From Azolla caroliniana (taxonomy: Eukaryota > Plantae > Polypodiophyta), in the NCBI GenBank assembly GCA_043228905.1, contig JBHGNT010000007.1, positions 7,006,001 to 7,070,000 on the forward strand: DNA of 64,000 bases, read 5' to 3'. The notes under the pieces were generated by a model. The model was not told the origin of the DNA, searched no databases, and saw only the letters and a program-made list of their open reading frames with translations. The position numbers and the translations under genes are program-made. Below, piece after piece: positions 20,264 through 62,100 of the stretch (positions are counted from its first letter, which is position 1; each line of letters opens with the position of its first letter).

Positions 20264-29802
<9,539 letters not shown>

Positions 29803-36291: not shown

Positions 36292-36448
36292 CATAGTTCT
36301 AGCCATATGTCCCATTTGTGCAAGATACTCAAACGCCAATATTCGTATCATACTCATACGTGAAAAGGCTTCGAGTATGATTGAAATCCATACGCGGTAC
36401 ATAGATATATACATATGGTGTATATATATATATATAGTGCGTGCGTGC

Positions 36449-36490
<42 letters not shown>

Positions 36491-39700: not shown

Positions 39701-41605
39701 ATGCAACATCCAAAAAGACAAGAGTGAATTTAATACGCAATCAAGGTATTCACCTCTTGTGCATACGACACAAATCACATATTAAATACATAGAAATTGA
39801 GGTATTGACCTCATACGCACACATAACATATGTATGTGAATGTAATACGCAATTGAGGTATTGCCCTCATACGCATACGACACAAATCACATATCAATTA
39901 TATGTCAATTGAGGTACACATATGATTGATAGAAAAAAGATTAAGAAAGGAATACTGAAGTCCGTTTGTTGATGCCTTTATGGATCAATCTCAACTACAC
40001 ATCGATCGATCGCCATCCAACAAAAAAAACATTAGAAAATACACTCTAATACCAATTGTTAAAGCTATATCCTAATGTAAGCATATGATAAGGATATAAG
40101 AGATAGATAGAAAAGAAAGGAGAGAGAAAGAATGGTGTCGATCCACCCGACCAGCCCCCAAGCGAAGGGATCGAGACGGACTCGAGCCTCGATTGGTGTC
40201 CCATACCACCGTCGTGGTGTCGAGTTGTACCTGGTACTGGCGCACTCGCTACAAGAGTTTGATCACCATGAGTTTAGAGTCTCGACGTAGTCAAAAGATG
40301 TCAAATAAGGGTAGCTAGGCCTCATATTTATAACCAGACCTAAGGCCCCATGCAAGTTCACACTTGACCTTAATGGGTTGTCTCAATCCCAAGTATTAAA
40401 AGTAATCATTCCCTTCTTTACACTCTTGTTTAACCCTCACATTTTATCCACATGTATGGAATACTACGGTACAATCTTACCATGGGATATTATATGGTCA
40501 TGCCCATAACATATGTGTACAATTTTCCCCATTCCGCAAAGAATATGGTTTCGTAATTAATTGCAACTTATGTAGTATAATGTGTGAAGCGTGAAACTCC
40601 ACATTTTTCCCACGTCATGAAGCATTGGCATTGCAAAAAGGCATCATTTATAGAGGAATCTAATGATGCATCATGAAGCAAGTGTGTTGCATCTCATCTA
40701 CCAAACCATTTTTCCATATCTTACATCCAATGGAACACAAAATTTTGCTTTTATGCATCTTTTCGATCTTTTTGCTTGTTTCCCATGCAATTCTAGGAAG
40801 TCAATGCGAGGGACTTTTTTGAACCTTAAGCATTTATCCAAATCTTTCCGTGGCCATGATCCCCATTATTTAGAGAGAGAGAGTCCATTATTTAGAGATC
40901 GTGTTATCTAGATATTATTGTTTGCTTTAATTGATAATATAGCTAAAACCATGCCATTGAGGTTAAGTTTTAATATGGACAAGCTCGTACTATCTAAAGC
41001 ACTAGGAAATTTTGGTTGATACTAAATGTCTAACCAAATATGAGAACAAAGGTAATGTGTGTAGCCTCTTAAGCAACCCTACTAGTGTCAATATCTCAGC
41101 CTATTTGAGATAAACTTTGATATAGGGTGTAATCTTGTGTAAATAATTTGTTTACCAGAAGACTTAGGGCTGGTCTAATCAAAGGGATTCAAAAATTGTC
41201 TTTGCTACAACAATTATGGACAAAGAAATACTTTGAATGTTTGGCTAGCTCACTAAAGTACACCTTATGTAAGAAATATTCTGAGTTACACAGGATTTGG
41301 GTTTCATAAAGTTGTCCTTGTAGTGGAAGGCACTTAGGACGGTTAACTTTGCTAAAAATTGGAGTTGCATAGCAATGGTTGCCCAAAGATTCTACCTCTT
41401 AAAATATACGTGTGTAGGAACTCAATCTTAGATAGAGATAATATACTATTTTGTAACAAAACCTTGATATGTACCCCGGAAAAACGAGGATTACAACTTC
41501 ATGCGTGCATGTTGTCAATAGTGGCACGACCTCTTAGATGTTTGTGATCAATTATGATTCAATATACATTCGACATGTTTGAGATTGTTCGGGTGACCAC
41601 AAGAG

Positions 41606-44600
41606 TGTTGAGAAGCAAGCTCAACATGGTATGTGATGCTTATGAGAAATAAGCTATAGTAGCTATTTAGCTACTAGTGAACAAAAAGGTAAAACAGCTA
41701 TTTAGCTAGTGACAGCTAATTAGCTAGTGAACAACTATTTAGCGACTGACAGCTAATTAGCTACTGGCAGCTAATTAGCTGCATGTGTAATAACTTATGA
41801 CTTAGGTAAAAGTAAGTGAGAGTGAATAGGAAGTAAGTAGTAAGGAAAAAACAGAGAATAGTGAGTAGAGAACTCTGAGAGAGAGTGAGAGACCAGAAGA
41901 CTGACGAGAGCAAGTTGAGCTCTACATGTAATAGAAGAAAACCATTTTGCTACTACAGAGGTAAGTCCCCTTTCCTTTCTCTGTCTGTTTAGAGCACGCT
42001 AACGATCCAGCACACTACGATCCGCCGCGCACATAAGAAGAGCCCGAGTGCCTTCTTCACGTTTTCTTAACATGGTATCAGAGCAGAGTAGCTCGTAAGG
42101 AAGAGTATAGCAGTGCCTTAATCTGAGAAAGTTATTTCTCTGGTTGCTGATCAGAAATCAGAAAGTTACTTGTTGAAGTAACTAAAGCAAAACCCTGGTT
42201 TTTTGGGAGGAAAAAAATGGCTGCAGAGAATGTAGGCCAAATGGTCACAGAGAAATTAGATAAAAACAATTTCCCGGCGTGGAAATTCAGAATGACAAAC
42301 TTTCTGATGGGGAAAGGATACTGGGATTACATTGAAGGAGACCTAGAAGAGGCTCCAGAGATCCCAGAAGAGAATGCAACAGCTGCACATATTAAGGCAT
42401 TTAAAGATTGGAATCAAGGGGCAAGGAAAGTAATGCATTGGCTATCACTCAGCATCTCAGATTCAATGCTTGGGCATATACAAGATGCTATGCTCCCAAA
42501 AGAAGCTTGGGACAACTTGGTAAAACTGTTTGCTGTGAACACAAAGGCTAGAAAGCTCCAGTTAAAGACTGAGCTAAATACCTTGGAGAAAGGTAAGATG
42601 TCAATAAATGAATATGCCCTAAAAATCAAGAGTATATGTGAATCACTTGCTTCTATCAATGTGAAGATAGAAGATGATGACAAAGTGGAAATATGCTTAA
42701 GAGGCTTAGGACCTCAATACAAGAGTTTTAAAACTTCTATGCTCACAAGGGATAGTATCCCAAGTTTTTCAGATCTGGTCTCAATGCTTGTGGTAGAGGA
42801 AAGGAATCAGATGGATGATGCAAATAAAGGAAACTCAGAGAACGAGGGGCAAGCCCTCTATAATAATGCCGGAAGAGGCCGAGGAAGAGGCCATGGAAGA
42901 TTTGGCTCAGGAAGAACCAATAATAATGGCTTTCAAGGAAGAGGACAACAAGCTCATAGAGGAGGAAACAACAACAGAGGCAGGGGGAGCAACCGAGGTA
43001 GAGGTAAGCAAACTTATGTAAATGATGATGGCTGCTGGTATTGTGGTAAACCAGGCCATACACAGGCTGAATGTTACAAGAAACAAAATGATGAGAAAAG
43101 AGGAAAAGGACAACAGAGTAACTATGCCTCTACTAGTGAAGATTGTGAAAAGGAAGGTGTTTTTGTAGTGCAACATGAGATAGCAGCAGTGGCTGAAAGC
43201 TCACAGAAATGTAATGAAGAGTTTACGTGGTATGTAGACTCGGGGGCATCTAACCATATGACTGGACATGCAAATTGGTTTGAGAGTTTAAGAGAACCAA
43301 AGGTTCCTGGTTATGTACAAACAGGTGATGACACAACTCACCAAATAAAACATGTTGGAGATATCCCATTGTGGGAAGAAAGAGGAAAAACCAAGTATAT
43401 GTTGAATGTGATGCATGTTCCAAACCTTGCTAAGAATCTGATTTCTGTTGGACAGATAGTAGAGCAAGGTATGCAAGTGAAGTTTAAGCAAAGTGGATGC
43501 TATATAGAAAAGAATGGGAAGCTCATTGCAAAAGGGAAGAGACAAGGAAGAATGTTTATCTTGGATGTAGAAATGCCCAAACATATTTCAGCCATGTTTG
43601 CAAATGGAACGAGTGTAATCTCAGATGTGGAAATGTGGCATAAAAGGATTGGCCATATAAGTATGCAAACATTAAAGAATATGTTGAGAAAAGATGCAGT
43701 GGCTGGACTGCCAAACTTGAAAAAGTGTGAAATGGGAAAAGTATGTGAAGCATGTCAATATGGTAAGCAAAACAGGTTGCCATTCCCTCATGAGAGACAT
43801 GTAAGCAAAAATCTGTTGGATTTGGTACATACAGATGTATGGGGACCAACAAAGAATGCATCTATTGGTGGATGCAGATTTTATGTTACATTTATTGATG
43901 ATTGTTCACGGAAGACATGGGTGTACTTCATGAAGGAGAAAAGTGAAGTATTTGACTGTTTTCGTAAGTTTAAATGCATGGTAGAAAAGCAGGCTGGTAC
44001 AAGGATAAAATGTTTGAGATCTGATGGAGGAGGAGAGTATTTCTCAAATGAATTTTCTGATTTTTTGTGTAATCAGGGAATAAGAAGACAGTTCACATGC
44101 CGATATACCCCACAACAAAATGGAGTTGCTGAGAGGAAAAACAGAACTTTGGTGAACATAGCAAGGGCAATGATGACTGAGAAGAACATGCCATTATACT
44201 ATTGGGCAGAAGCTGTAAATACAGCAAATTACATTTTAAATAGATGTATTACATCAGGAGTACATGAGGCAACTCCTGAAGAGTGTTTTTATGGCAGGAA
44301 GCCTAGCTTACAACACTTGAAAGTGTTTGGATGCCTTGCATATGTACATGTGCCTGCAGAAGTAAGAAGTAAGTTGGATCCAAAGGCAGAAAAATGTATC
44401 TTTGTGGGATATTCAGAAGAACAAAAAGGGTACAGATGTTATAACCCTGTGACTAAAAAGATTGTGACAAGTCGAGATGTGATATTTGATGAGTTGGCTA
44501 GTTGGTACAGCCCAAAACAGAATCCAGAGACTGATGAAGACAATGAGATTGAAGACAAAGACAAATCTGAAAACGTAGAAGACTGCCATAGAGATGGAAG

Positions 44601-47052
44601 CAAGATTGGACAGCAAAGTCCAACATCAACAGAATGTTCTGGACCATCAAAAAGCTCAGATGGTAAATCTGATTCAAATTCTTGGAGTGGAAAAAGTGGA
44701 GGACACAAAAAATGTGATGATAAAAAAGGAAAACAGAAAATGCCAGAGTATGAAATCCCGGATGATCTATCAAAAAACATGGAAGATGAAGATTCAGATA
44801 TGTCTTTGGATGATTTCCTTGGAATACAGGAAATGAAAATCCCTGGTATGGAAAAGGCAATAAAGAATGCAAATCAGAAACTGAGAAGATCAGATAGAGA
44901 GAAAAAGACTGTGGAAAGATTTGGGTATGATACATACATGGCTATGCATTATGCATACATGTCTAAGGTGGTACAGATCCCTGATCCAAACAGCTTCGAA
45001 GAAGCAAAATCTGAGAAGAAATGGATGGATGCAATGCAAGAAGAGATTGATGCATTGGCTGAGAACAAAACGTGGGATTTAGTGAAGTTACCAAAAGAGA
45101 AAAATGTGGTAGGCTGCAAATGGGTCTACAAGACAAAGCATGACTCCAATGGGAATGTAAGTAGACATAAAGCAAGATTGGTTGCAAAAGGATATGCTCA
45201 GATGCAAGGGATTGATTATGATGAGACTTTTGCACCGGTTGCAAAGATGGCAACCTTGAGAACACTACTTGTTGTAGGAGCAGCCAGAAAATGGATTTTG
45301 CATCACATGGATGTAAAAAATGCTTTTTTACATGGTAACTTGGAAGAAGAAGTGTATATGAGTCAACCACCAGGTTTTGAAGATAAGAAACAACCTGATT
45401 ATGTATGTAAGCTGAAAAAAGCTCTCTATGGACTGAAACAGGCACCAAGAGCATGGCACAGAGAACTTTCAGATTCTCTGAAAAATCTTGGTTTCAAAAT
45501 GTCAAAAGCTGATCCTTCTTTGTATGTAAAAAGTGAAAATGATTGCATTGTTATTATTCTGATTTATGTGGATGATTTGATTATTGGAGGAGATTCCGTG
45601 GATGAAATAAGAAAGTTGAAAAAAAATCTGGAAATGCAGTTTCATATGAAAGATTTGGGAGATCTGAGATATTTTCTTGGTATTGAAATCATCAGATCTG
45701 AAAGTGGTATATGTATGTTGCAAAAACAGTATGCAACAACTATGTTGAAAAAGTATGGTATGCTTGGATGCAAACCTATTGCTGTACCACTTGATAAAAA
45801 CTGCAAGTTGAGGGCTGATTTGGGAGCCAAGATAGAAGATGTAAACATGTACAGGTCTATGGTGGGCAGCCTTATTTATTTGACTATAACAAGACCTGAT
45901 TTGAGCTATGCTGTTGGATTAGTCAGCCAGTTTATGCAACAGCCAACAAAGCCACATTTGGACTGCATCAGAAGGATTCTGAGGTATGTAAAAGCAACTC
46001 AGAACTTTGGACTATTTTACAGGGCTGATCTAGACATAAATCTGGAAGGATATACAGATGCTGATTGGGCTGGAAGCCAAACAGACAGGAGATCCACAAG
46101 TGGATACATGTTTACCCTGGGAAGTGCAGGAATTTCATGGAGTAGCAAGAAACAGGCTACTGTTGCATTGTCCAGTACAGAAGCTGAGTATAGAGGGGCT
46201 GCAATAGCCACATGTGAAGAAGTATGGATCAGAAGACTGCTTGCTGATCTGGGAGTATATATAGATGGTGCTGTCACAATCTGGTGTGACAATATGAGCA
46301 GCATTCAGCTTGCAAAGAACCCAGTGTTCCATGCAAGAACAAAGCACATTGAGGTGCATTATCACTTTGTTAGAGAAAAAGTGATGGAAGGTGAAGTTGA
46401 TCTGGTGTATGTGAATACAAGCCAGCAGGTTGCTGATATTCTCACAAAGGGATTGAGTGTGGAAAAGCATACACAGTTTCGGAACATGATGGGAGTTGTA
46501 AACATTGATGAGATGGCTAAAAAGCAAAATGGAAAAGAAGATTGAAGAGAACCTCAAGCAAGAATAAGTTGAGCTTGAGGGGGAGTGTTGAGAAGCAAGC
46601 TCAACATGGTATGTGATGCTTATGAGAAATAAGCTATAGTAGCTATTTAGCTACTAGTGAACAAAAAGGTAAAACAGCTATTTAGCTAGTGACAGCTAAT
46701 TAGCTAGTGAACAGCTATTTAGCGACTGACAGCTAATTAGCTACTGGCAGCTAATTAGCTGCATGTGTAATAACTTATGACTTAGGTAAAAGTAAGTGAG
46801 AGTGAATAGGAAGTAAGTAGTAAGGAAAAAACAGAGAATAGTGAGTAGAGAACTCTGAGAGAGAGTGAGAGACCAGAAGACTGACGAGAGCAAGTTGAGC
46901 TCTACATGTAATAGAAGAAAACCATTTTGCTACTACAGAGGTAAGTCCCCTTTCCTTTCTCTGTCTGTTTAGAGCACGCTAACGATCCAGCACACTACGA
47001 TCCGCCGCGCACATAAGAAGAGCCCGAGTGCCTTCTTCACGTTTTCTTAACA
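41606..47052 (+). mobile_element. Intact, very recent Ty1/copia LTR retrotransposon (5447 bp)
   Basis: LTRs 41606-42072 and 46586-47052 (467 bp; one mismatch, 41734 A vs 46714 G). TSD AAGAG. PBS TGGTATCAGAGC at 42073-42084; PPT ttgagggggag at 46575-46585. Single uninterrupted ORF. Confidence 0.98.
42217..46545 (+). CDS. Copia Gag-Pol polyprotein (1442 aa): Gag/CCHC, protease, integrase, RT, RNase H
   Basis: CWYCGKPGHTQAEC; WYVDSGASNHM; WHKRIGH...CEACQYGK; HTDVWGP, RSDGGGEY, QNGVAERKNR; ARLVAKG, MDVKNAFLHG, YVDD; YTDADWAG, SSTEAEY, RTKHIEVHYHF. Confidence 0.98.
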   Translation: MAAENVGQMVTEKLDKNNFPAWKFRMTNFLMGKGYWDYIEGDLEEAPEIPEENATAAHIKAFKDWNQGARKVMHWLSLSISDSMLGHIQDAMLPKEAWDNLVKLFAVNTKARKLQLKTELNTLEKGKMSINEYALKIKSICESLASINVKIEDDDKVEICLRGLGPQYKSFKTSMLTRDSIPSFSDLVSMLVVEERNQMDDANKGNSENEGQALYNNAGRGRGRGHGRFGSGRTNNNGFQGRGQQAHRGGNNNRGRGSNRGRGKQTYVNDDGCWYCGKPGHTQAECYKKQNDEKRGKGQQSNYASTSEDCEKEGVFVVQHEIAAVAESSQKCNEEFTWYVDSGASNHMTGHANWFESLREPKVPGYVQTGDDTTHQIKHVGDIPLWEERGKTKYMLNVMHVPNLAKNLISVGQIVEQGMQVKFKQSGCYIEKNGKLIAKGKRQGRMFILDVEMPKHISAMFANGTSVISDVEMWHKRIGHISMQTLKNMLRKDAVAGLPNLKKCEMGKVCEACQYGKQNRLPFPHERHVSKNLLDLVHTDVWGPTKNASIGGCRFYVTFIDDCSRKTWVYFMKEKSEVFDCFRKFKCMVEKQAGTRIKCLRSDGGGEYFSNEFSDFLCNQGIRRQFTCRYTPQQNGVAERKNRTLVNIARAMMTEKNMPLYYWAEAVNTANYILNRCITSGVHEATPEECFYGRKPSLQHLKVFGCLAYVHVPAEVRSKLDPKAEKCIFVGYSEEQKGYRCYNPVTKKIVTSRDVIFDELASWYSPKQNPETDEDNEIEDKDKSENVEDCHRDGSKIGQQSPTSTECSGPSKSSDGKSDSNSWSGKSGGHKKCDDKKGKQKMPEYEIPDDLSKNMEDEDSDMSLDDFLGIQEMKIPGMEKAIKNANQKLRRSDREKKTVERFGYDTYMAMHYAYMSKVVQIPDPNSFEEAKSEKKWMDAMQEEIDALAENKTWDLVKLPKEKNVVGCKWVYKTKHDSNGNVSRHKARLVAKGYAQMQGIDYDETFAPVAKMATLRTLLVVGAARKWILHHMDVKNAFLHGNLEEEVYMSQPPGFEDKKQPDYVCKLKKALYGLKQAPRAWHRELSDSLKNLGFKMSKADPSLYVKSENDCIVIILIYVDDLIIGGDSVDEIRKLKKNLEMQFHMKDLGDLRYFLGIEIIRSESGICMLQKQYATTMLKKYGMLGCKPIAVPLDKNCKLRADLGAKIEDVNMYRSMVGSLIYLTITRPDLSYAVGLVSQFMQQPTKPHLDCIRRILRYVKATQNFGLFYRADLDINLEGYTDADWAGSQTDRRSTSGYMFTLGSAGISWSSKKQATVALSSTEAEYRGAAIATCEEVWIRRLLADLGVYIDGAVTIWCDNMSSIQLAKNPVFHARTKHIEVHYHFVREKVMEGEVDLVYVNTSQQVADILTKGLSVEKHTQFRNMMGVVNIDEMAKKQNGKED

Positions 47053-48698
47053 AAGAGAAGTGCATATAATAGAGCGATTTTCTACCAAATGGAAACCATG
47101 TTTCATATACCTCTTATATATTATCAAATTTGGGAACCTTTATCTACTTTGCCTATTCTTGCACATTATTCTAAAATTGGTGGCAAATGAGCAATGTAAA
47201 GACTGATTATTAATAACCAAAATTCAATCCTCACGACAAAGACTAATGATGTTTATGATAAGTTGATTGAAGATGGAGCTTCATTATGTTGGCATAAAAG
47301 GCCAACTCCTTCCACTTTGTATCCGTACTAGTGTGAACACGTCCAATAGTGAGGGCTTCAGTATATAAGCCCTAACCTAACGTTGTAATATGTGTTGCTT
47401 GATCATCTTGTATCTTGAGTCTCTGAGTGAGAGAAAAACAGAGAATAACGAGAATCACCATTGAAGCTTAACTTCTTGTCTATCTACTCCTTTAGCTACA
47501 TATGTGTGTAAGGTGTTTGTTGTGCATAACCGACAGGTTCTCAAATGTTCTTCCGCGCATATCTGCTCACAAGTGGTATCAAAGCGAACCTGCTACTCGG
47601 CAACAACAAAACAACAAAGACAAGTTAGATGCAATTCGACACAACGAAAAACCCGTTATGATGTCAGCTGAAGAGCGGAGATAATTAGACGAAATTGCAC
47701 GCTCCACCATCCGAATGCATTTGGCCGAGAATGTCTACTTCAGTATGGCCAAGGAGACGACAACCTTCTCATTATGGGAGAAGTTGCAAGTAGTGTACGA
47801 AAAGAAGTCCTCCTCGCCGAAACTCATATTGATTCGACAACTATTCAATATGAAGATAAGAGAGTCAGATCCTGAAACCTCCCACATCAACACCTTCAAT
47901 CGGGTGTTGTCTGAACTATCCTCCCAAGGGATTAACTTCGAAGAAGAAATGAAAGCCCTTGCCCTCTTGTCGAGCTTGCCAACGAATTGGGAGGTATTCT
48001 ACACGACATTTGCCAACAACTGTTGTCGTGAAGAAAACCGTCCCCAGGCGCAAACCGTGTATAGCATGCATGAACCGGCCCTTACACGTGGGCACGCCCC
48101 TTGTTGTATAGTAGATAGGTAGGCACAAAAGTCGAATCCTAGGTAGCAATATTCTATAGGGAGAATCGAAGAGTATCTCTCTCCGAAAGGACATAGAATT
48201 AACGTGATGTAAACGGGTCAACGACCTCCCTCCTTGAGCTATAAAAGAGAGGGAGACGGGGAGAGCAGGGGGGGCGCTTGAGAGGACGAAGTGTTGTCGG
48301 ACTGGGACTCCATAGCTTTCTTTTGCGCAGGTTCTCGAGAGGCTGATTCTGCTCCGTGGAACACCCGTGTGCTTCCGGTAGAATCTCCATCTTGCTCCCT
48401 TGTGTGCGTGGGTGATCAGGCGTCGGCATTCATCTCGTCGACATGATCGGCTGTAACCGTTTGAGTCGTCTGCATACATATATTTATATACATACACTAG
48501 TGTTCTTATACTGTATCTCCTGCTCCACTCGTGTCTCCTGTGTTGTTGGGCCGCGTTCCCGTGCGCTTCTTTGTCTATACGTGTGTGAGCGTGTCTCTCT
48601 CTCTCTCTCTCTCCCTTTTCTCACCTATTCCTCGGTCCAAGACCCAGGTGGTCCCGCCTTGTTCTGCACGCACGCGTGTAACAACGCAACATCTCTTT

Positions 48699-48716
48699 TG
48701 GTGAACCCGACGTGAA
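48699..48716 (+). promoter_or_regulatory. Primer-binding site complementary to tRNA-Trp 3' end
   Basis: Reverse complement TTCACGTCGGGTTCACCA matches the 3' end of plant cytosolic tRNA-Trp(CCA), from memory. An identical site lies at 53932-53949 on the minus strand. Confidence 0.8.
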
Positions 48717-51085
48717 CAGGCGGCAGAGGAGTAGAAGATGAGGGGGTCGGACCTCGCAGAAACCATGGCTTCGGCTGTGGACCGTATAGTGAGTGCGCGC
48801 GAAGGCACCAACGCCCTTGATAGGGCTATCGAGGCGGTTGTCGGTACGATTGACCGGTTTAGTGGGAAGGATGCCACGAACTACTTGGCGTCCTACCGGG
48901 CTGAGATGGTAATGAGGGACATTCCGGAAGAGAGGCGTCTAGCCGGATTCCCTCGAGTGGCGATGCCGGGCATCCATACGGAGGTGCTCGAGGTACGGGC
49001 CGAGAGCCGGACCTGGGAGGAGTTCGAAGGTCGGCTCCTTGAAAAATACGGGCTTGAAGACGCGCTTCGACTTTCGAAGCGGGACTTCATGGAGTGGGTG
49101 GAGACCCCTGACACAGGAAGGAACGCGTCGGTGCTCCTCCGGGAGTTTGAGGAACGCTTCGCGCGCCTCTCGGTGCTTGACCGGACCATTCTGGACACAA
49201 GTCGTGTCCTATTGTCTGTTAAGTCAGTTGACGAGCGGGATCGGGAGCAAGTAGGCCTCCTATTGGAGACTGATGACGGGCTAACGGCCGACTGGGCTGT
49301 GGTGAAGAGGGTTTGTGGCCGTTTTGACAAACGACGGGAATGGGTTGACAAAGGATCGACAGGGGCGGGCTCTGTCGCAGCAAGGAAGCTCGAGCCAACA
49401 CCACCAACGCGAAGGGAAGAGACCCGAGATTGGCTCGAGACCGGATCGGCTTCGACCGGCATGGTCAAGGGCTCGAACGGGGGAGCAGCTCTGGAGGAAC
49501 AGACACAGATGGTAAAGGATCTCCAGATCGCCCAGGCACGGAGGGATGGTGGCGAACAAGCCCGTGACCGACGACCTCTGGCTGGAAGCAGGTGCATGTG
49601 GTGTGACGCGGTTGGCCACATCCGGAAGGACTGCGGGGACTTCGCCGAGGTGTTGAGAAGCAACGTGGTGTACCTGTGGAACGGTCGGGTGCACGCCAGT
49701 GAGACTCGAAGGGCCTTGGACTTGAACGTCGGGCGAGGAGGTATGGAAAGGCTAATGGAGGAGGCAGCGGCTCGTCACGCGGAGACCATCCACTACTCGA
49801 CGTCAGCTGGTATTCAGGCCGGAGGTGGGGAGGCCCCGAAGACGAACAAAGCCGGGTTCTGGCCGACGATGCTAGAAGGCCTCGCCGACGCACGACTAAG
49901 GAAAGAAGAGGCGGACCGTTGTCGCGTTGTTATGCGCGTGCGTGGAGAAAGGCGGGACCACGGGGGTCTTGGACTAGGGAGTGACGGAGCGTAGGAAGTC
50001 GCGCTTCACCGTTTCCGGGGGATCCCAGAAGAACACCGGAAGCTACCGAAGGGAGAGAGAGAGAGAGAGGGAGCGCGCGCTTAACACCGACTCACGCACA
50101 CACACGCACACACACACACACATGCCGACCCTACTCACGCCCTTATGTACAAGAAACGCAGGAAAGGGGAAGCACCCGACACCAACAAAGATGCGAATAT
50201 ACACAGACAGATGCAACGTATATATATATATATATATATATATAAAAGGAAGAATACATTCCCGGCGTCGAGCCGGACCAAGGTAGGTTACAGTAGTCGT
50301 CAGCTGCCAAGCCGCCGGTCGGGGAGCTCACGGGCTCGTTGCGCCGAGCGGGGTCTTGCGCAGGAGATGAGCAGAAGCAAACCCTAAACAAACACGAAGG
50401 GGGAGAAGAAGAAGAAGAAGAAGAAGAAGAAGAAGAAGAAGAAGAAGAAGAAGAAACTAACTCTAAACCTAACGGTATACCCTCTAATGCAAAATGGGCA
50501 ACCCTTTCACAAAGGGCGTTCCCTTCCTTTTATAGAACAAGGAGAGGGATGCGTTACAATGTGGGATAAATCCCGACTTACATATTCTTCGACGCCATAA
50601 AGGCGCCCTCGATATTCACACTAAATGTACATGGGTGCGTACACACACTGCAACCCTCCGATGTAGCCAATGTTTCTCGGTTTCTGCCTCTGGCCGAAAT
50701 TCTTCACGACATCCGCCCCCACCTAACTGCACGTCCACCGGTACGTGCCAAATATGGTTGAAGGGTGAGAGATTTCGGCCGGTGAGAAATCGGTCTCCCG
50801 TGATCCGCATCTCGGCTCGCTGCCGGTTCGATCCGTCGGCTTCGAGTCTTCCTTCGCGCTTGCCTCCCCGTAGGCTCGTTCGACCCGTTGATGGGCCCTC
50901 TGCCGCGATCTTCGTAGTACGCGTACTTCCGTTGGCCCTTGTTCGGCCGTATGAACGCCCCGCTTCCCGCCGTAGGCCCGATGTCCTCCGCTTGAGGCAT
51001 GCCCGTAGTGGCCTGCTTGGCCTCCGTTGATCATTCGCGTCGTCCTGATTCCCGTCCCTTGTCGTTTCGCGTTGCCCTCGTCCTC

Positions 51086-52205
51086 TCGCCGCCACCTTCC
51101 TTCTCCATGGTCTTACATCGCTGCGTCGGCTCGAACCGCCATGGTCTCCGGAACGGTGTGGAGGATCCCTTTCCGACCTGATCGTGCATCGCCGCCCACC
51201 CGCATACCGGCGTCCTTTGCATCCAAGGAACACCCCGTAGCAGCCCGCTTGGCCCTTCCCGTCTTCATGCTGCTGAAGTAGGTCCTGAGACTTCCGCTTG
51301 CTGTCGTCCCCTCACCCCCACCAGTTTGTCACCCCGGGCTTGCCGTGTCAGTCTTCGCTACTTCGACGGAGCTCCCAAGATCTACGACGCGAGTGTGGAG
51401 GATCCTCCTCCGGCCTCTCTTGCCATCCCTTGACTTCGACCTTGTGCAGTCCACTAGGCACTTGTCACCTTGTTCCCGGCACCTCCCTTGTGCCGTCTTC
51501 TGCTTCCTTCGTTCGGCCCCGCCCGCGCCGAACACCGTCCCGTAGTCACGCTTCGATCCAGCCCGCAATGGCCACTTGCGAGACCCTTGTTCTGTCCCAG
51601 GAGTGCCTTTCCGGCCTGACACACCTCCCCGTGTTTGCCCCTACCGGCTCCTTCCGAAACCTCGTATCGTCGAGTCCCGTTCCCTGCCGCCACCGTCCTT
51701 CTCCATCGGTCTTACGTTGCCGCGTTGGCCGATCAGCCGAGGTCTCCGGATCGGATTGAGGGTCCCATAGGACCGGACTCCGTTTCTATGCTTGCCGAAA
51801 TTCGGGTGTCTTCTGTTTGAGTCCCTCCCGGACTCTCCTCGTGTCTTCCGCATAGTCTGGTCCCGTTTCCCGTCGCCACCTTCCTTCTCCCTCGGTCTTA
51901 CGTTGCCACGTTGGCCGAACAACCGGAGTCTCCGGTTAAGTGTGGGGATCCCGTAGGACCGGACTTCCTTACGCCCATTGCCTTCGTCACCTCGCCGCCA
52001 CCGTCAGTATCTTGGTCTTACGTCGACCGCGTTGCCGACTGCCGAAGTCTCTAGAACCGGTGTGAAGGATCCTCCGTAGGCCTCCAATTTGTAGCCCTTG
52101 CCTTCGTCACCTCGCCGCCACCGTCAGTATCTTGGTCTTACGTCGACCGCGTTGCCGACTACCGAAGTCTCTAGAACCGGTGTGAAGGATCCTCCGTAGG
52201 CCTCC
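51086..52205. repeat. Five-copy internal repeat in the gag-only element (last two copies a near-perfect 120-bp tandem)
   Basis: cgccacc.tc...ggtcttac.t.g...cgt.g...gtctc recurs at ~51090, 51688, 51874, 51996 and 52116. Confidence 0.8.
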
Positions 52206-53305
52206 GATTCATATTCCCGACCCTGTCCGGGGTCGTCCCTTTCCACATGCTGAGAGGGCGGTTTACTCCGCACCCTCTCCCGTGTTACCGTCGTACCGTG
52301 TCCTCGGCCTCTTCGTAGGCCTGCTGCTCTCTTCCTCCCTCCCAGAATGGTCATCCGGGAGTTCGCTCCGCCCGGTTCTCGCTCGGGTCCGTTCGTCCTT
52401 CCATCTCTCGACCTTCGCCCGATCGGTCTTTCTCCCCATGTAAAAGAGGGCGGCTCGTCCCGCACCCTCTTCCGTTTTGGCACTTTCATGTCGAATCTGG
52501 CCCCGATCGAACAATCCACGATCGGATCACGCTCCACCCGTATCGGAATACCGATTTCCTCGTGCCGCTTCCGTCCTCGGCCTCCTCGCAGGCAGTTTCC
52601 CATCCGACTTCGCTGGCATCGTGCCAGGACTCCTCGGTACCGTCATCCATCTCCTCGGTCTTGCATGGGCATACGGGCCTGAATGCCGAGTTCTCCGGAA
52701 TTGGGTCCGCGGGCTTTCGTTCGCTCCTTCCCCGTATCGTCTCGTCGGTGATTCTTGGCCTTTCGCCGCCGCCTTCCTCTGCTTGGGACTCACGTGGGCA
52801 CTCGGGCCCGACTGCCATCGTCTCGGGAGCAAGTGTGGGAAGACACAAAGAATCGCCCGTCCGATTTACGCCCTTGTCCGTAGCCACCGGCTCTCCGTGG
52901 TCGGCGGTCGTCTTCTTACCGATAGCGCAAGCCCCGTCCGGGCTTGCTTCTCCAATGACCGGGATCTCGGGCTGACACGCCCGAAACCGCTGGTCCCAAC
53001 GTTCCGGTTCCGCGATCGGTATCTCGGCCTCGTCCTTGGCCGTTCTATCTCTGCAAGTCGAGAGGGCGTTTTGTTCCGCACCCTCTCCCGTGGTACCGAT
53101 CTTCCGTCGTCGCGTGGGGCAAGTCCGTCTCCTCAGTCTTGGCTTGCGGCCTTGATCTTTCCTCTTCCTCGAGCATCGCCTCGAGAGCTGCGTACGCCTC
53201 CGCAATCCTGGCCCCAACACCGATCCTTGCCAACTCCCTTTTCCATTCGGCTTCTTCCCGCTGTGATGGCACGCCGTCGCGCCCCTTCCTCTTAGCCTTC
53301 TCGGC

Positions 53306-53887
53306 TCACTCGTTGTCTAGCCGTTGGCACACCCTTCCGACCTTCGACCAGTCCTCCGTAAGCCCATTCGCCCCGTCATCATCTTCGAGCTCAATCCCGA
53401 TGGCCTCCTGTTCCGCTCGGTCGATCGACCTGACGAACAATAGGACCTTGTCCGCCCCCACCAAACCTTGTTCCCGCTCCGGGAGCCGAGCAAGCCATCG
53501 CTCGAACTCTCGGAACGCCTTCGTCGCGCCCCGGTGGGTCTTTGCCGATGCTACCCATTGGTCGAAATCATGTCGTCCCTGGCTCTTCCGCCGTCCTCTG
53601 TATGCCTTCAGGAGCGCCTCCTCGAAGGCCTCCCACAAACCATGAGCCTCACGGAGCTCCTTTACTTCCGCATGCATCCGGACAACTACGACCCAACAGA
53701 AGAACTCCAACCTTAACGCCTCGTCTACGCCACACTCCTCCATTTCCGCGTTGTAGGCTTCCAAGTAAGATGGGACTTTGTCCCTGTTGAAACGGCCGAC
53801 TCTTTCGACCACTCGCTCAACCGCTTGTTGCGCTGCTTCTCGCCTTATCACCACTCGTGCTGACTCCAACACCACTTCGGCCACCAT
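53306..53887 (-). CDS. Gag capsid-like N-terminal ORF of the gag-only element (continues past a stop into an acidic low-complexity tail)
   Basis: Aligns by eye to the middle element's Gag. RFNRDKVPSYLEAYNAEM vs RFSGKDATNYLASYRAEM; VLLFVRSIDRAEQEAIGIELEDDDGANGLTEDWSKVGRVCQRLD vs VLLSVKSVDERDREQVGLLLETDDGLTADWAVVKRVCGRFD. Confidence 0.75.
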   Translation of the reverse strand: MVAEVVLESARVVIRREAAQQAVERVVERVGRFNRDKVPSYLEAYNAEMEECGVDEALRLEFFCWVVVVRMHAEVKELREAHGLWEAFEEALLKAYRGRRKSQGRHDFDQWVASAKTHRGATKAFREFERWLARLPEREQGLVGADKVLLFVRSIDRAEQEAIGIELEDDDGANGLTEDWSKVGRVCQRLDNE

Positions 53888-54253
53888 CTCCGCAAGGTCG
53901 TCGTCTTCGACTCCATCCTCCCTTGCCGCCTTTCACGTCGGGTTCACCAAAGATGTCGCGTTGTTACGCGCGTGCGTGGAGAAAGGCGGGACCACGGGGG
54001 TCTTGGACTAGGGAGTGACGGAGCGTAGGAAGTCGCGCTTCACCGTTTCCGGGGGATCCTAGAAGAACACCGAAAGCTACCGAAGGGAGAGAGAGAGAGA
54101 GAGGGAGCGCGCGCTTAACACCGACTCACACACACACACGCACACACACACACACACATGCCGACCCTACTCACGCCCTTATGTACAGGAAATGCAAGAA
54201 AGGGGAAGCACCCGACACCAACAGAGACGCGAATATACACAGATAGACGCAAC

Positions 54254-54294
<41 letters not shown>

Positions 54295-55685
54295 GAAGAA
54301 TACATTCCCGGCGTCGAGCCGGACCAAGGTAGGTTACAGTAGTCGTCAGCTGCCAAGCCGCCGGTCGGGGAGCTCACGGGCTCGTTGCGCCGAGCGGGGT
54401 CTTGCGCAGGAGATGAGCAGAAGCAAACCCTAAACAAACACAAAGGGGGAGAAGAAGAAGAAGAAGAAGAAGAAGAAGAAGAAGAAACTAACTCTAAACC
54501 TAACGGTATACCCTCTAATGCAAAATGGGCAACCCTTTCACAAAGGGCGTTCCCTTCCTTTTATAGAACAAGGAGAGGGATGCGTTACAATGTGTGATAA
54601 ATCCCGACTTACATATTCTTCGACGCCATAAAGGCGCCCTCGATATTCACACTAAATGTACATGGGTGCGTACACACACTGCAACCCGCCGATGTAGCCA
54701 ATGTTTCTCGGTTTCCGCCTCTGGCCGAAATTCTTCATGACACCGCGCGGAAAAACGAGTCTGGGAGGTAACCGGGTGGAGTGACCCGGTGGAAGAAAAG
54801 ACGGGCTTTGTCGAAGCCGCTTGTCAAAACTACGAGGCTCTGGTGGAGGACAAGCGGGTAGAAAAAACCGGAGGGGCCGAACCCTCGCAACGATATGAAA
54901 CTTGATTCAGGCAAAGGCGGAATGAGGCCGGTGTAACCGGCGCCCAGGATAATCCCAAGAAGGGCGGGTACTAGCTGGGCACAGAAATCGAAAGATCCAT
55001 GGACCTGCGAAAGGTCCTGGAAGAACGAATCCTTGACAGCAAGGTGGAACTGTCGCTGAGGGAAGTGCTCGGGATCGCTAAGAAGGAGTTCCACGACTCC
55101 ATCGTAGACTTGGTGAAGAGGAAGAGGCTGTCGACGGAGTCAGAACCGGAGAAGCCGGTGGAGGTGTGGACGACGCACATAGAGGACATGGCGTTGGAAG
55201 ACGAGTTGGCAGAGAGCCACTATTCGCGGCCGCACTGGGCCAGAGCGACCACGGAGACCTCCGTGAAGATCGGAGATGTTCATGAACCGGTGGTGGCGTT
55301 GGTGGACCACGGTTCAGAAATCAATTTGATGTCCATGGACTTCTACAAGAAGGGGAAATGACCGATCAACACCAAGCACGGGTGGACAACGGGCAGCGAC
55401 GCGTGCCACCGAAGAACTGCATGGAGCCTGCCCGAATGTACGAGTAAAGATCGGCGATGTCGAGATTGACCAGCACTTCTTCGTGCAGGAGACGTCCTCA
55501 CATCCGGTTATACTAGGAGAACCGTACATCACGGCAGCACGGATGGAGACCAAGGTGTTGGACAACAGCTCGGCCTATGCAAGGGTCAAGAGCCAAGATG
55601 GGCGTCACTTGGTCCAGTTCCTGACGGTGAGACCGAACCATGAGCGGAACCGCGAGACCCTCGGGGGCGAAAGCTGAGAGGATTT

Positions 55686-58600
55686 TTAGAGAGGGCTATC
55701 AAGGCGTGGGGCTACGATAGTCTGGACACTCCGGGAAAACCCCACAAGTGTACGATAGCGAAGAAGACCTGTACTATAAGTAGGAAATTTTGGTTCTCTG
55801 ACAACGGAGGGTGTACGATAGTCGACATCGTTGGCTGGAAGAAGAAAAGGGCGGAGGAGCGACTTCGGGCATGTGGTATCCTCGGCCTTGGAGAGGAAAT
55901 CAACGGAGCCGTGGAGGCGGTCTCTTTCGACGATACCTTGGGGGAGCTGCGAGAGGTAGTCGGAGGAGTCCTTAAAGAGGACCGGACGATTCCGGTATGT
56001 TCGGAAAGGATGTACGAAGTCATCGCGGACTTCAGTAGAGGGCTCGAGTCGGATCGGACAGCCCGGGTGGACACGAGGTACAAGACTGTGGACCGGAAGG
56101 TGAGGCCAGTCGCGGCTCCCTTGTCGGAGGGCAGCGAGTTGCGAATAAAGGGGGTTGCGTCGGACCCGAGTTTACAAAATCTGGCACGCATAAGACACAC
56201 GTTCACCGACATAACGCTACGTGAGCTCAAAATCGGTGGGGGCGGCTTCCTACTGCTGGCGGAAGAGGACCGGTTTCGGGGAATGCTCGGAAGGCACGGG
56301 AAGGCTTTCGCATTCTCACTGGAGGGGATCGGGTGCATAGACCCGACAGTCGTGGAACCGATGGTGATATTCATGGTGCTGCATGTGCCGTGGAGTCTCA
56401 AACCGATTCCAGTACCCAGAGCTCACATCCCGAAGTTGATGGAGCTGTTAAAGCGGAAGGTCGAGATGGGCATCCTCGAACCGTCGAGTGCCCCATACTT
56501 GAATCGGTGGTTTACTGTGCCAAAGAAGAACAGCACGCTGCGCTTTATTCAAGACCTGTAGCCGGTCAACAAGGTGACCATTTGAAACGCAGGAATCAGA
56601 CCGACAATAGACGAGTTCGCGGAGGCCTTCGCCGGAAGGTCGATTTACTCGGTCAGTGATCTCTACTCGGGGTACGATCAGTTCCAGCTAGCCATAGAGA
56701 GCAGAGACATCATGACAATGCGAACTCCTCTCGGTCTAGTACGGATGTGTACCCTACCGCAAGGAGGGACGAACTCGGTGGCTCACATGGTGAACGCAAT
56801 GAACAAGGTGCTGAGGGATTGTATCCTGGACATCACCATGTCGTTTTTGGACGACGTCCCGATCAAGGGATGCTCGGTGGAGGAAAAGGACGAGACGATT
56901 GGACCGGACGGGTGCCGGAAATTCGTGGCGACGCACATCGATGACTGCGAGAAGGTGCTGTAGAGGTTAGAGGGCGCGAGGCTCACCTTCTCCAGGGAAA
57001 AATCGACCTTCGGGCAATCAGAGATCATGGTCGTCGGACACCTATGCGAGTCGTACGGCCGGAAACCGTCTCCTGCTAAGGTAGAGGCCATCTCCGCGAT
57101 GAAGCATGACTGTAGCTCGGTCACGGAGGTTCAGAGGTTCTTGGGAGCATGTGCGTTCTACCACATATGGATCCCGCATTACGCCCACGTCGCGGAGCCG
57201 TTATACGGGTTGCTGAAAAAGGGGCGAAAATTCGAGCGGAGAGACGAGCATACAGAGTCTGTCCGAAAGATGAAGGAAGCACTTGCCGCAACTCCGGCAC
57301 TCCGAAAGGCTATCTACGGAAAGGACACTCCAATTTACGTAACGGTAGACACGAGTCCGACTGGGATTGGATGGGTCGTCAACCAAGAGGACGAAGACGG
57401 CATGCATTTCCTGATCCGGTTCGGCGCGAAGGTCCTCAGTGAGCGACAACGAGGATACGCCCAGGTTAAACGCGAGCTCTAGGGTATCGTTTCGGCGGTA
57501 AAGGCAGATAAAGACTACCTGATCGGGACAGAGGTAATTATCGAGATGGACTGCCTGCCAATTCTTGGCATGGTTTCCGGATGCGCGACGCCGAACCTGG
57601 CAATGCTCAGGTGGATAGCATACATCAAGTCCTTGAATCCGGAAATACGACACATTTCTGGGAAAGACAATGCCATGGCCGACATGCTTTCAAGGGTGAG
57701 GTTCAAAAACGAGGGCGGCATGGTTTCGGAGGACGAGGAAGTCGGCATGGACTTCTTCGAGGCGGCTTACGTAACAACCGGCAGGGAATGCACTTCAATG
57801 CTTAACGATTTCGACGAGAGCAAGTACAACGGGGAGTGGCTGCAGATCGGCGGGTTCCTGAAAACAATGACACCGGACGCGGCATGGACAAAGGATGAGG
57901 CCAACCGGATTCGGAAGAAAGCGTACTGATTCTTTCTCCGAGACGGGTACATATGGAAGCACCCGAAGAAGAGGAACGACATCCCACTCCGAGTGGTGGC
58001 GAAGAAGGAGGAACAGGAGGATTTGCTGGCGGCGTACCACGATAATCCTTGGGCTGGACACCGTGGAACATGGGCCATGTTCGAAAAGCTAAAGGGGAAG
58101 TACTGGTGGCCGGGACTATACCGGGACGTGCATCGGTTCGTGACGACTTGCGAAAGCTGTCAAGTGCACTCCATGATCCGACACTGGGACGAGCTTCACC
58201 CGACCTATCCTCCGACCGTCCACTTCAAGTGGATGGTGGATTTGGCGACGATGCCAATGGGGGTAGGATAAATGCGGTATCTGGTGCTGGCTCGGGAGGA
58301 TCTAACGAACCAGGTTGAAGGCCGAGCCCTGCAGAACAAGACGACTGCAGCCGTGTGCTGGTTTTTGATTGAGGACGTGGTATGTCAATATGGGTGCGTA
58401 GGGAAGATCGTGGCTGACCGTGGTGAGTTGGACGCAGAAGAGGCCGAAGAGCTGTTCGACAAGCTAGGAGTCAAACTTTCGCTCACCACAACGTACAATC
58501 CGGAGGCAAACGGGAAGGTAGAGTGTGGACATGGGCCGATTGTCAAAGCGCTAGTACGGGCGTGCGGAGGCCAAGTCGGGAACTGGCCACGACTGCTACC

Positions 58601-59138
58601 TTATGCCTTGTGGGCGGACCGGACTACGCACAGTTCGATAACCGGGTTCATGCCGGCAGAGCTTATGTTCGGACAGAAGCCGATCATGCCAACAGAGCGA
58701 ACGATCTCCTTGTGGGCCACGGTGGACTGGAGGGATGAGATGAGCCAGGAGGAATTGTTGGCGGCGCGGATTCGACAGCTCAAGCGGAGGCTGGAGGACG
58801 TAGAGCGAGCCGCGGAGAAACTTCGAGTAGCGAGGATAAGGAACAAAGCCCGATTCGACCGAACACACCGGCTTCGGCCAAGGAAGATCGAGGAAGGCGA
58901 CTGGGTGCTAGTCTACAATAGCAGCCTCGACAATCAGCACAAGGCCACGCGGAAGTTTGCGAGGAGGTGGTTCGGGCCTTACGTAGTAACAGGCGCCAAC
59001 GACAATGGGACGTACCATCTCGTGGAGCTCGACGGTACGAGAATGGTGATACTGATAGCGGGGAAGAGGATCAAAGCATTCAAGAAACGACACGATGGTG
59101 AGCCGGAGCTAGGAGGCATGGACAACAACGACGAGTAG
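55686..59138 (+). pseudogene. RT-RNase H-integrase ORF of the Trp-primed gypsy, in the -1 frame relative to gag-PR, several stops
   Basis: The frame is open 55686-56558 and continues in ORF pieces at 56712, 57027, 57546, 57993 and 58272-59138, broken by single stops. Confidence 0.85.
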
Positions 59139-62100
59139 CCCGAGGCGGAGGACGAACCGGTAAACGAGGAATAAAAGCAAGGACCGGTTTTCTCCAGTAG
59201 GAACCCAATTCTGGCGCATACCGGTGGATGCGCGGTTAGGTGGGGGCGGATGTCGTGAAGAAAACCGTCCCCAAGCGCAAACCGTGTATAGCGTGCGTGA
59301 ACTGGCCCTTTCACGTGGGCACGCCCCTTGTTGTATAGTAGATAGGTAGGCACAAAAGTCGAATCCTAGGTAGCAATATTCTATAGGGAGAATCGAGGAG
59401 TATCTCTCTCCGAAAGGACAGAGAATTAATGTGATGTAAACGGGTCAACGGCCTCCCTCCTTGAGCTATAAAAGAGAGGGAGACGGGGAGAGCAGGGGGG
59501 GCGCTTGAGAGGACGAAGTGTTGTCGGACTGGGACCGAGCTCTTCTTCTCTGTCGTTCTCCATAGCTTTCTTTTGCGCAGGTTCTCGAGAGGCTGATCCT
59601 GCTCCGTGGAACGCCTGTGTGCGTCCGGTAGAATCTCCATCTTGCTCCCTTGTGTGCGTGGGTGATCAGGCGTCGATATCCATCTCGCTGACCTGATCGG
59701 CTGTAACCGTTCGAGTCGTCTGCATACATATATTTATATACATACACTAGTGTTCTTATACTCTATCTCCTGTGTTGTTGGGCCGCATTCCCGTGTGCTT
59801 CTTTGTCTATACGTGTGTGAGCGTGTCTCTCTCTCTCTCTCTTTTCTCACCTATTCCTCGGTCCAAGACCCCGGTGGTCCTACCTTGTTCTCCACGCACG
59901 CGCGTAACAACGCGACACCGTTCGATCCTAAATTTAGATGAGATGATCGGCCAAGTCCTCACTGAGGATATTCGGCAAAAATCAATGGGACTCACCATCG
60001 ACGAATATGCAGAAGCCCACCACTTGATTAAGTTGATCAACTGACCGAGTAAATCGAAAGAACAAATTGACAGAATTGGTTGACATAATAGTCAATCGAA
60101 AACAAGGGGAGACTGACAATGGTCGAAGTCGAGAACCAATCGACTAGGCGACTTTTGCACCACTTCAAAAAACTTGGTCATAATTTTTTTGATTGTTGGT
60201 CGATCAAGAGGAAAGAGAGTAGTCGGTGATCTGAGCGGAATTGAGGACGGTCTAACTTGAACCACTCTCTAGTCGGCAACCAAGTCAATGTTGCCGACAC
60301 CCGATCGGGAGAAATTTTCTCCTTGTAGGACTCAATGATCGACGAAGTCCTCTACAATGCACAAGATGCACATACGTGGTTGTTGGACTCTGATGCGACA
60401 TTTCACGTAACCCCAAACATCGAATGGTTTTCTAACTATTCAGTTGAAGCCAACGACATAGTTCGACTAGGCAATGTGCAGGAGTGCAAACTTGCAGGAA
60501 TTGGTGAAGTACCAATTCAATTGTCAAATGGCAACACGATAGTCCTACACAAAGTTCAACATGTACCCGCATTGAAAAAAGAGTCTGGTCTCCATTGGCA
60601 TGTTAGCCAAAGACGGGTACAGAATGACTCTGAGTGAGTCGACATGGATGATCAACCGTGGAAACCTGAAGATAGGAAGTGGGCACAAGTACAACAACTT
60701 GTACCTAATGATGGTGATCAATCTAGAAGGGGTTGTGAACGTAGCTGAAAAGACTGACCCGAACCTATGGCATGGCCGACTCAGCCATATGTCTCAAGCC
60801 GGCCTATATCGGCTAATGGCGGTTGGCTACATTCCTAAACTCCAAGCAAAGACGGACTTATGCGAGCATTGTGGATATGGGAAATAGACCCGAAGTCCGC
60901 ACTCTCTCCATTACGAAATGGTACGATAACCCCTAGAGCTCGTGCACATATATATTTGTGGGCTTATGTCTAAGAGATCACTAGGAGGCTCCTGGTACTT
61001 CATCACATTTGTAGATAATTGTACACGGAAAGTTTGGGCCTATTCGATTAGGTCGAAAGATGAAGCGCTCGAGGTCTTCACTCGGTGGATAACTGAAGTG
61101 GAGAACCGGTCATGATACAGAGTGAAGACACTCCGATCTGACAATGGAGGAGAATACACCTCCTGAGCCTTCAAACAGTACTTGTCTGACAAAGGGATCC
61201 GGAATCAAAAGATTGTTCCATACACACCCATGCAAAATGGAGTGGCTGAACAAATCAACAAAAAAATCCAATAGAGTGATGACAATGCTCCAATAAGTTG
61301 GACTGAAGTTGGATTTCTGGGCCGAAGCATTGCAGACGGAAGTATATTTGATCAACCTGTCACCGTCGAAAGCAATCAGGCTCGAAGTGCCATAGGCAAT
61401 ATGGTCAGGAAAACGACCGACCTACGATAGGCTTCGTATATTCGGATGTGAAGCCTACACATTCATCCCCAGGGAGAAAAGGACCAAGTTGGCACCCCAT
61501 GCAACAAAATGCATATTTCTCGGTTATGGAACCGATGGGGAATTCAGTTACAGGCTATGGGACCCAGAGAATTGGAAATTGATTAAGAGTAGTGACATAG
61601 TCTTCAATGAAGACTCTATTCGCTCTGCGAGGAAAAAACAGAAGATAGTTGGTAAGAAGGTCTCCTTCAAAGTCAATAGAGACATCGTAGAAAGACCGAC
61701 CCACCGGGCCGAATCAGAGATTCGACAAACAGTTGAACTCGACCAAGCCAACAACACACTCACTGGCTCCAAATCGGTAGGAGGTTCACTAATCGAACAC
61801 AAAGACAAGGACATCAAAGACAAAGCAAAATCGACAAGAGTTGAAAAAGGTAAAGTCAACAAGGTGTGACCCAACAACAACAAAGTCGACTCGGCTGACA
61901 AACAAGCCAAGGGCCAAAGCCGAAAGGAGTCAGCTAAGACTCCTACCTTCAAGTCACTCGATCTCAAAGCAGGAGAGGATGACATGACATCAATGATCTC
62001 CTATTACAAGGGCGAGTCATCCGAAAGGACTCCTGACATAAGTGATTCAACAAATGTCGGTCGGCTGAAAGAGACAATCGAAGGATCCGAACTGATCATT

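Follow-up and report, generated by a model that had tools for sequence, protein, structure and literature searches.

We analyzed a window of 64,000 nucleotides of Azolla caroliniana DNA (assembly GCA_043228905.1, contig JBHGNT010000007.1, positions 7,006,001 to 7,070,000, forward strand). It contains a long terminal repeat (LTR) retrotransposon without pol (the inner element, 54742-49920, minus strand), inserted in a gypsy element (the middle element, 48024-59917, plus strand). Very probably, the inner element belongs to an old clade that codes only for a capsid-type Gag with an acidic tail, and is copied and inserted by the reverse transcriptase (RT) and integrase (INT) of the Phygy-like gypsy family surrounding it. 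We infer this trans-mobilization from the absence of pol, the shared primer binding site (PBS), polypurine tract (PPT) and LTR tips, three covarying hairpins, a common 4-bp CG-centred target, a separate Gag clade under purifying selection, and a high copy number. Below, elements of the inner type are called satellites and those of the middle type helpers.

A satellite nested in a helper-type gypsy

The two elements are part of a three-level nest, in which the gypsy is inserted in a copia element. The outermost copia is decayed, with a Pfam gag_2 match before the gypsy and protease (PR), INT and RVT_2 matches after it. The middle gypsy has LTRs of 668 and 667 nt with a Kimura two-parameter distance (K2P) of 0.047, and is 7067 bp long without its insert. 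The inner element is 4823 bp long, with LTRs of 789 and 792 nt and a K2P of 0.021; thus, it is younger than its host element, as the nesting requires. The features of both are as follows (window coordinates).

48024..48691, plus: 5' LTR of the middle (helper-type) gypsy; left flank CTGT
48699..48716, plus: middle PBS, 18 nt, identical to the inner PBS
48738..49919, plus: 5' part of helper gag, capsid domain and CCHC knuckle (49593-49634)
49920..50711, minus: 3' LTR of the inner element; flank CCGT
50712..50724, minus: inner PPT, identical to the middle PPT
50729..50748, minus: inner pre-PPT hairpin, 8 pairs; loop region with palindrome ACCGGT
50760..52485, minus: inner non-coding 3' region, degenerate repeats of about 120-190 nt derived from tail-coding units
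52489..52548, minus: Trp/Arg-rich C-terminal segment of the inner Gag; same end in locus L001 and proteins P0075 and P0083
52549..53305, minus: acidic low-complexity tail of the inner Gag; 20% D+E in 53097-52489
52609..52629, minus: FFAT-like motif SWHDASE after the acidic tract, candidate only
53306..53932, minus: N-terminal helix and two-lobed capsid domain of the inner Gag
53932..53949, minus: inner PBS
53954..54010, minus: shared 57-nt LTR end with two covarying hairpins
53954..54742, minus: 5' LTR of the inner element; flank CCGC
54743..55689, plus: 3' part of helper gag, DUF4100 region and protease motif DHGSE (55305)
55680-55686, plus: candidate -1 slippery site GGATTTT in helper gag, preceding a stop
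55690..59138, plus: helper pol with RT, RNase H and INT; six premature stops between 56559 and 58269
59214..59233, plus: middle pre-PPT hairpin, with compensatory changes relative to the inner hairpin
59238..59250, plus: middle PPT
59251..59917, plus: 3' LTR of the middle gypsy; right flank CCGT

The inner element codes for a Gag and lacks pol

A preliminary description of this DNA had expected no pol domains in the interior of the inner element. Indeed, a Pfam scan of 50712-53953 gave no family at E<=1 in any of the six frames, while the same scan found RT, RNase H (RH), INT and DUF4100 in the middle element. In a tblastn search with the helper pol frame, the inner element and one of 22 related loci matched solely in the PPT-adjacent stretch, and no pol remnant was detected. 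The view that the inner Gag is homologous to that of the helper yet far diverged was also correct: their capsid parts are 39% identical over 201 amino acids (aa; E 3e-32). The acidic, repeat-rich region said to replace pol has to be divided, however. Pol is absent and the Gag has an acidic tail, but the coding part stops at 52489, and a non-coding repeat makes up the distal 1.77 kb. The Gag open reading frame (ORF) of this subfamily is about 480 aa long, with the same end in L001, P0075 and P0083, and the three sense frames of the distal part contain 15, 11 and 6 stops, several of them common to the sister contig L001.

Satellite Gags have a common layout, namely an N-terminal helix, the capsid, an acidic spacer of variable length and a basic, Trp-rich end. 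The inner Gag has lost the zinc knuckle and the protease. A knuckle, protease or DUF4100 motif was found in none of the 25 inner-type proteins that run 100 or more aa past the capsid domain, and 12 of 16 helper-type proteins have a knuckle. The tails are homologous among satellite subfamilies, not to the helper Gag-PR. When four satellite tails were compared with the helper interior by tblastx, only PPT-anchored sum-statistic chains appeared, which we took as noise. Self-blastp of P0089 reported no internal repeat, though short repeats are visible by eye.

A predicted fold like that of the Arc/Ty3 capsid is supported by an AlphaFold model of the inner Gag (predicted local distance difference test, pLDDT, 74). 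This model matched dArc1 (Z 9.9, root mean square deviation [rmsd] 12.3, 157 aligned) and an Arc lobe (Z 9.2, rmsd 1.8, 64 aligned), and also the capsid folds of Ty3, Ty1, copia, PNMA2 and PEG10. In line with this, the language-model neighbours of P0089 1-260 were Retrotrans_gag clusters, at 0.92. A sequence search of the Protein Data Bank (PDB) with a mixed Gag profile gave one irrelevant match (E 0.31).

After the acidic tract, five retrieved proteins of two subfamilies and the window copy carry a WHDAxE motif. It departs at several positions from the consensus of FFAT (two phenylalanines in an acidic tract), and its identity as FFAT is that of a candidate only; W2 and H3 each occur, separately, in Arabidopsis ligands of VAMP-associated protein (VAP) (PMC3261905). 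Another acidic tract, followed by the FFAT-like DFFEAAY, is located at 57740-57770 in the RNase H-INT linker of the helper pol.

The inner and middle elements share their ends

Comparison by blastn confirmed that the two elements share LTR tips, the 18-nt PBS and the PPT region. The common parts are the last 57 nt of the LTR (88-89% identity, E 4e-17), 35 nt of PBS and leader (91%), and 49 nt ending in the PPT (84%). The first 12 nt of the LTR match at 12 of 12 positions between the 3' LTRs, with one mismatch in the inner 5' LTR. The LTR bodies, previously described as unrelated, are mostly so: when they were compared without ends and microsatellites, the only common part was one 33-nt TATA-like patch (local score 35 versus 23.4+/-2.9 for shuffles, none of 100 as high). 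By comparison, a helper-type LTR of locus L018 scored 385 against the middle LTR; L006 was excluded from this comparison because its upstream sequence is flank and not LTR. The PBS is presumably complementary to tRNA-Trp, which agrees with the table for Phygy. ARAGORN found no tRNA in the window, and among the matches listed by a literature search for the PBS motif there were only unrelated primers. Together, the shared ends narrow the candidate cis signals of this little-studied gypsy lineage to about 170 nt.

Two of these ends are structured. The 8-pair hairpin before the PPT contains GCACGT/ACGTGC in the inner element and GCGCAT/ATGCGC in the middle one. In the alignment of 7 rows, 98% of cells were paired (14-57% in slid controls) with 2 covarying pairs, and the covariation score was reached in 2 of 500 shuffles. 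The two LTR-end hairpins were 92% paired (13 rows) with 3 covarying pairs; here, score and pairing were reached in 0-1 of 500 shuffles and the pair count in 13 of 500. An Rfam search of 48000-60000 gave no matches at E<=1. Palindromic loops such as ACCGGT are reminiscent of retroviral dimerization loops. The ACCGGT palindrome is altered in 3 of the 7 rows, and its role as a dimerization loop is a lead only.

Both elements use CG-centred target sites, and the helper is Phygy-like

Each element is flanked by a 4-bp target site duplication (TSD) with one mismatch, which reads CTGT/CCGT around the middle element and CCGT/CCGC around the inner one. In other helper copies, 49914 is joined to 54742 and 4827 nt (4823 + 4) are absent; this empty-site joint was seen in all three DNA runs. 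A 5-bp TSD was rejected, since the 4-bp reading fits both flanks and the joint. Insertion sites were CG-centred in 4 of 4 satellites and 3 of 3 helpers (the window copy has CTGT at one flank), compared with CG frequencies of 0.034 for the window and 0.084 for the middle element. Omitted from this count were six LTR starts preceded by a PPT, matches to LTR ends in reverse orientation, and a match in L002 whose continuation does not resemble an LTR. Furthermore, helper-type LTRs lie in or beside satellite LTR ends at CG-centred sites (L018 163-830, L011 846-892), showing that both classes nest in each other, both ways. At L003 33-735, one satellite subfamily is represented by a solo LTR that is bordered by ACGG on both sides and tandemly repeated in its contig.

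The NCGN target motif is described as peculiar to Phygy (Neumann et al. 2019, PMC6317226). Of the 186 Phygy elements in that source, 100% have a 4-bp TSD and 81% a Trp PBS; the PBS of Selgy is of the Ala type. The helper has the 4-bp NCGN TSD and the gypsy domain order, and no chromodomain, second RNase H or extra ORF was found in it with Pfam. At 7067 bp, it is slightly short of the 7656-9968 bp of Phygy, a range taken from one moss. In the Gag tree (see below), its Gag falls in the same DUF4100-type family as the named moss Gags, but outside their clade. By TSD motif and domain order, the helper thus appears to be Phygy-like, with a Gag outside the named moss clade. The earlier suggestion of a Trp-primed, Phygy/Selgy-like lineage can be kept for Phygy, with its 4-bp NCGN TSD and frequent Trp PBS, but not for Selgy, which uses Ala.

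Satellites form a diverged clade under purifying selection

We retrieved 81 near-length and 8 longer inner-type Gags, 38 helper-type Gags and 22 related loci; a scan of IMG/VR gave 14 pattern matches and no relatives. Four of the 22 loci have full PBS-to-PPT interiors (L001, L006, L007 and L012), none of which contains pol. L001 is of the same family as the window element, and the Gags of L006, L007 and L012 are 58, 53 and 52% identical. The L012 interior is a single ORF of 1419 aa without a Pfam family, the L006 ORF is about 630 aa long, and both are uninterrupted and end near the PPT; the PBS of L007 is decayed. Sister copies with the same LTR and pol, which by the preliminary description would refute its reading, were not seen in this sample: none of the 22 contigs matches pol beyond the PPT-adjacent stretch, with only four spanning PBS to PPT. 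In reads across the PPT junction, 3' interiors were not assignable to LTR types, and helper-like 3' sequence was among the loose ends.

For the trees, 188 of 296 proteins were omitted because they covered fewer than 150 profile positions. In a careful tree (LG+G4, 45 of the remaining 108 capsid rows), a 99/97 branch sets the 17 inner-type rows apart, and a 100/100 branch unites the 8 helpers. Another 100/100 branch splits satellites, helpers and four unlabelled rows from the named moss, liverwort and fern Gags, and a quick 108-row tree agreed. All named relatives are from seed-free plants (Physcomitrium, Riccia, Calypogeia, Adiantum and Ceratopteris). Satellite subfamilies, with interiors of 2-4.3 kb, are more diverged among themselves than the several helper subfamilies, which have 55-90% Gag identity. 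Judged by these relatives, the inner element is very probably not a deletion derivative and belongs to a clade of at least five diverged subfamilies. The preliminary idea of a helper/satellite pair holds as to a satellite with matched ends, but the partners are two clades, one of satellites and one of helpers, in a many-to-many relation. The helper copy that houses the inner element need not be its helper.

The suggestion that the inner gag does not evolve neutrally was substantiated by pairwise ratios of nonsynonymous to synonymous substitution (dN/dS), which indicate purifying selection (median 0.30, range 0.13-0.65; 120 pairs of 16 sequences, with 7 of the 22 loci omitted as too short).

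Over the inner interior (50972-53575), the summed contig depth in three runs was 34,000-106,000, 9,800-25,700 and 10,000-22,800, and a unique flank contig had depths of 21.8, 11.2 and 8.2. Summed depth is not a copy number and is inflated by overlapping short contigs; it can be read only as hundreds to thousands of copies of the inner family. Helper pol bins were about three to four times deeper than the inner interior. One of the three runs carries another organism label, and thus the family is present in at least two labelled organisms. One presumed-RNA run contributed 44 scattered contigs.

Alternative explanations

Several observations weigh against the interpretation given above. With four of 22 loci covering the whole interior, the remaining tree rows are called pol-less by protein features alone, and the search for pol-bearing sisters covered 22 related contigs rather than whole genomes. 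These loci were assembled from metagenomes as short contigs of a repeat with high copy number and may be collapsed or chimeric, and L001 lacks internal 506-856. Both trees carry long-branch warnings. Many pairs have a dS close to saturation, and for close pairs dN/dS is 0.45-0.65. The gag of the window copy is itself broken in three places, near the start (~53907), by a stop at 53306-53308 and by a frameshift near 53100. The shuffle controls for the hairpins (7 and 13 rows) ignore relatedness, and the number of covarying pairs before the PPT was reached in 80 of 500 shuffles. As to the fold, the predicted template modelling score (pTM) was 0.51, and Foldseek ranked the same capsid folds first, but all at E >0.1.

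A sample of short contigs, together with helper-like 3' sequence of unassignable LTR at the PPT junction, would leave room for the inner element to be a recent internal-deletion derivative of an unsampled autonomous family with the same LTR and Gag. This is very improbable in view of four complete pol-less interiors from subfamilies that are 52-93% identical, ORFs that run unbroken to near the PPT in L012 and L006, tails homologous between subfamilies and not to helper Gag-PR, and 25 proteins of which none has the motifs lost from the inner Gag. It is quite unlikely that satellites are mutualists donating a capsid protein also used by the helper, as proposed for Quinta and Cereba of wheat (PMC11302176). 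The conserved capsid domain and purifying selection would suit such a role, but helpers retain a complete Gag with knuckle, the satellite Gag is without this RNA-binding part and only 39% identical to theirs, and cis-preference may account for selection without benefit to the helper. A possible, though not probable, variant keeps the enzyme dependence and has the satellite Gag form a separate particle, or act as a restriction-like modifier of helper capsids, instead of joining a mosaic capsid. Such a variant is in line with the retention of both capsid lobes and with the greater divergence among satellite subfamilies than among helpers. However, Pol is apparently made only downstream of the helper Gag-protease, by a putative frameshift, so that the enzymes would have to enter with helper Gag.

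Proposed mechanism and a possible moss parallel

Under trans-mobilization by helper enzymes, the satellite would be transcribed from its own LTR promoter and its Gag translated; this Gag would then co-assemble with the Gag and Gag-Pol of the helper. The only route for Pol would be a frameshift fusion to helper Gag, pol being located behind the helper Gag-protease with the candidate -1 slippery site at 55680. The satellite Gag may favour its own RNA in cis through the basic, Trp-rich C-terminus, a candidate for this role with the knuckle absent. Helper RT would prime on the shared tRNA and PPT, and helper INT would recognize the shared tips and cut at NCGN. The enzymes could come from any element of the helper clade, the copy seen here being only the landing site. 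A complex prediction of helper and satellite capsid domains, run without alignments, gave no answer (score 0.00).

In Physcomitrium, P0248 (A9U5V9), P0287 (A9TUY0) and P0236 have a capsid and an acidic tail and no knuckle, P0236 also having an aromatic basic end. All three are moss-type Gags annotated there as predicted proteins, in another Gag clade than the satellites. A single clade of A9U5V9, A9TUY0 and P0236 with the satellites was rejected (approximately unbiased test, p-AU 1.5e-26; the group was picked after the first tree had been seen). An independent moss parallel, known from proteins alone, is a possible lead. Beyond this, Phygy-type gypsies might have undergone the same redesign two or more times, in Physcomitrium as well as here (loss of knuckle and protease, an acidic spacer, a basic C-terminus rich in Trp, and in two subfamilies an FFAT-like tether to the endoplasmic reticulum), and the pre-PPT ACCGGU hairpin might be a kissing loop that pairs satellite and helper RNA for co-packaging. 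We consider this proposal unlikely as a whole; if true, it would amount to a satellite-virus-like system within plant genomes, with a compact, testable packaging signal.

Other features of the window

A multi-exon cullin gene (Pfam) is located at about 20684-29790 (minus strand). The ORF at 10303-10839 resembles a plant MYB (SANT) exon, but gave no Pfam match. At 31782-40513 there is a decayed minus-strand gypsy (RT 34852-35709, INT 32753-33250) with 458-nt repeats at 31782 and 40056 (89%) and a 670-nt tandem duplication at 32947-34289 (98%). An old LTR remnant at 38956-39416, within another decayed gypsy nest, is 81-87% like parts of the inner LTR. A very young copia at 41603-47052 has LTRs that are 99.8% identical, a 5-bp TSD (AAGAG) and an unbroken gag-pol ORF of 1464 aa (42151-46545), and stops about 235 bp short of the outer copia.

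Comparison with known systems

The concept proposed in the preliminary description is already published for wheat RLG_Quinta/RLG_Cereba (Heuberger et al. 2024, PMC11302176). In the literature searched, including parts of PMC6317226 and PMC6911290 and with subscription papers, Repbase/Dfam and most supplements outside the search, no account of a Phygy-type non-autonomous partner was found. Most non-autonomous LTR elements cannot be traced to a helper; here, the NCGN footprint and the covarying hairpins tie the satellite to its helper despite diverged LTR bodies. Since they have no Pfam match, satellites are abundant yet invisible to domain-based annotation; in genomes of seed-free plants, they would go unnoticed or be annotated as host genes. 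Furthermore, a selected Gag without zinc knuckle raises the concrete question of how RNA is chosen for packaging.

Quinta is a non-autonomous gypsy with Gag and an unknown domain only; it is 28-35 million years old and has divergent Gag lineages, the Gag being conserved as protein and barely as DNA (PMC11302176). As in Quinta and Cereba, the PBS is identical, the LTR termini and PPT match the helper, and the Gag is divergent. Quinta, however, is a centromeric (CRM) partner in grasses and shares the LTR 3' half from the TATA box on, whereas here the lineage is Phygy-like and the second LTR half is not strongly conserved, with only the 57-nt end and the 33-nt TATA-like patch in common. The present system also has at least five subfamilies, a tail of 250-1200 aa that is acidic and then basic and Trp-rich, and the NCGN motif as a link between the partners.

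Like TR-GAG elements (Chaparro et al. 2015, PMC4350172), the inner element has LTRs, PBS, PPT and a single gag ORF, lacks PR, RT, RH and INT, and is multicopy. TR-GAGs are generally shorter than 4 kb, with a 5-bp TSD and a Pfam UBN2 or Retrotrans_gag match, whereas the inner element is 4.8 kb long, with a 4-bp TSD and no Pfam match, its capsid fold being indicated only by structure and language-model features. TR-GAG1 keeps the zinc knuckle and its helper was not found (PMC4350172); here, the knuckle is lost and the helper lineage can be identified. In sugar beet, there are also Gag-retaining non-autonomous families of more than 4 kb, 29 of 115 having GAG/PROT, but a helper tie was available for only 30 of 115 families (Maiwald et al. 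2026, PMC13570524); here, the tie is through ends, structure and target motif.

The helper resembles Phygy in its 4-bp NCGN TSD and the lack of an extra domain, with a presumptive Trp PBS. Complete Phygy elements measure 7.7-10.0 kb (PMC6317226), as compared to 7.07 kb for this helper, whose Gag is outside the named moss clade. Phygy was described from Physcomitrella only. As a further likeness, the Gag family includes Physcomitrium, Riccia, Calypogeia, Adiantum and Ceratopteris proteins. Apparently new, in comparison with the systems consulted, are the lineage, the knuckle loss, the unshared promoter half, the structured cis map and the possible independent moss parallel, in a type of partnership not yet described, it appears, in this lineage of seed-free plants.

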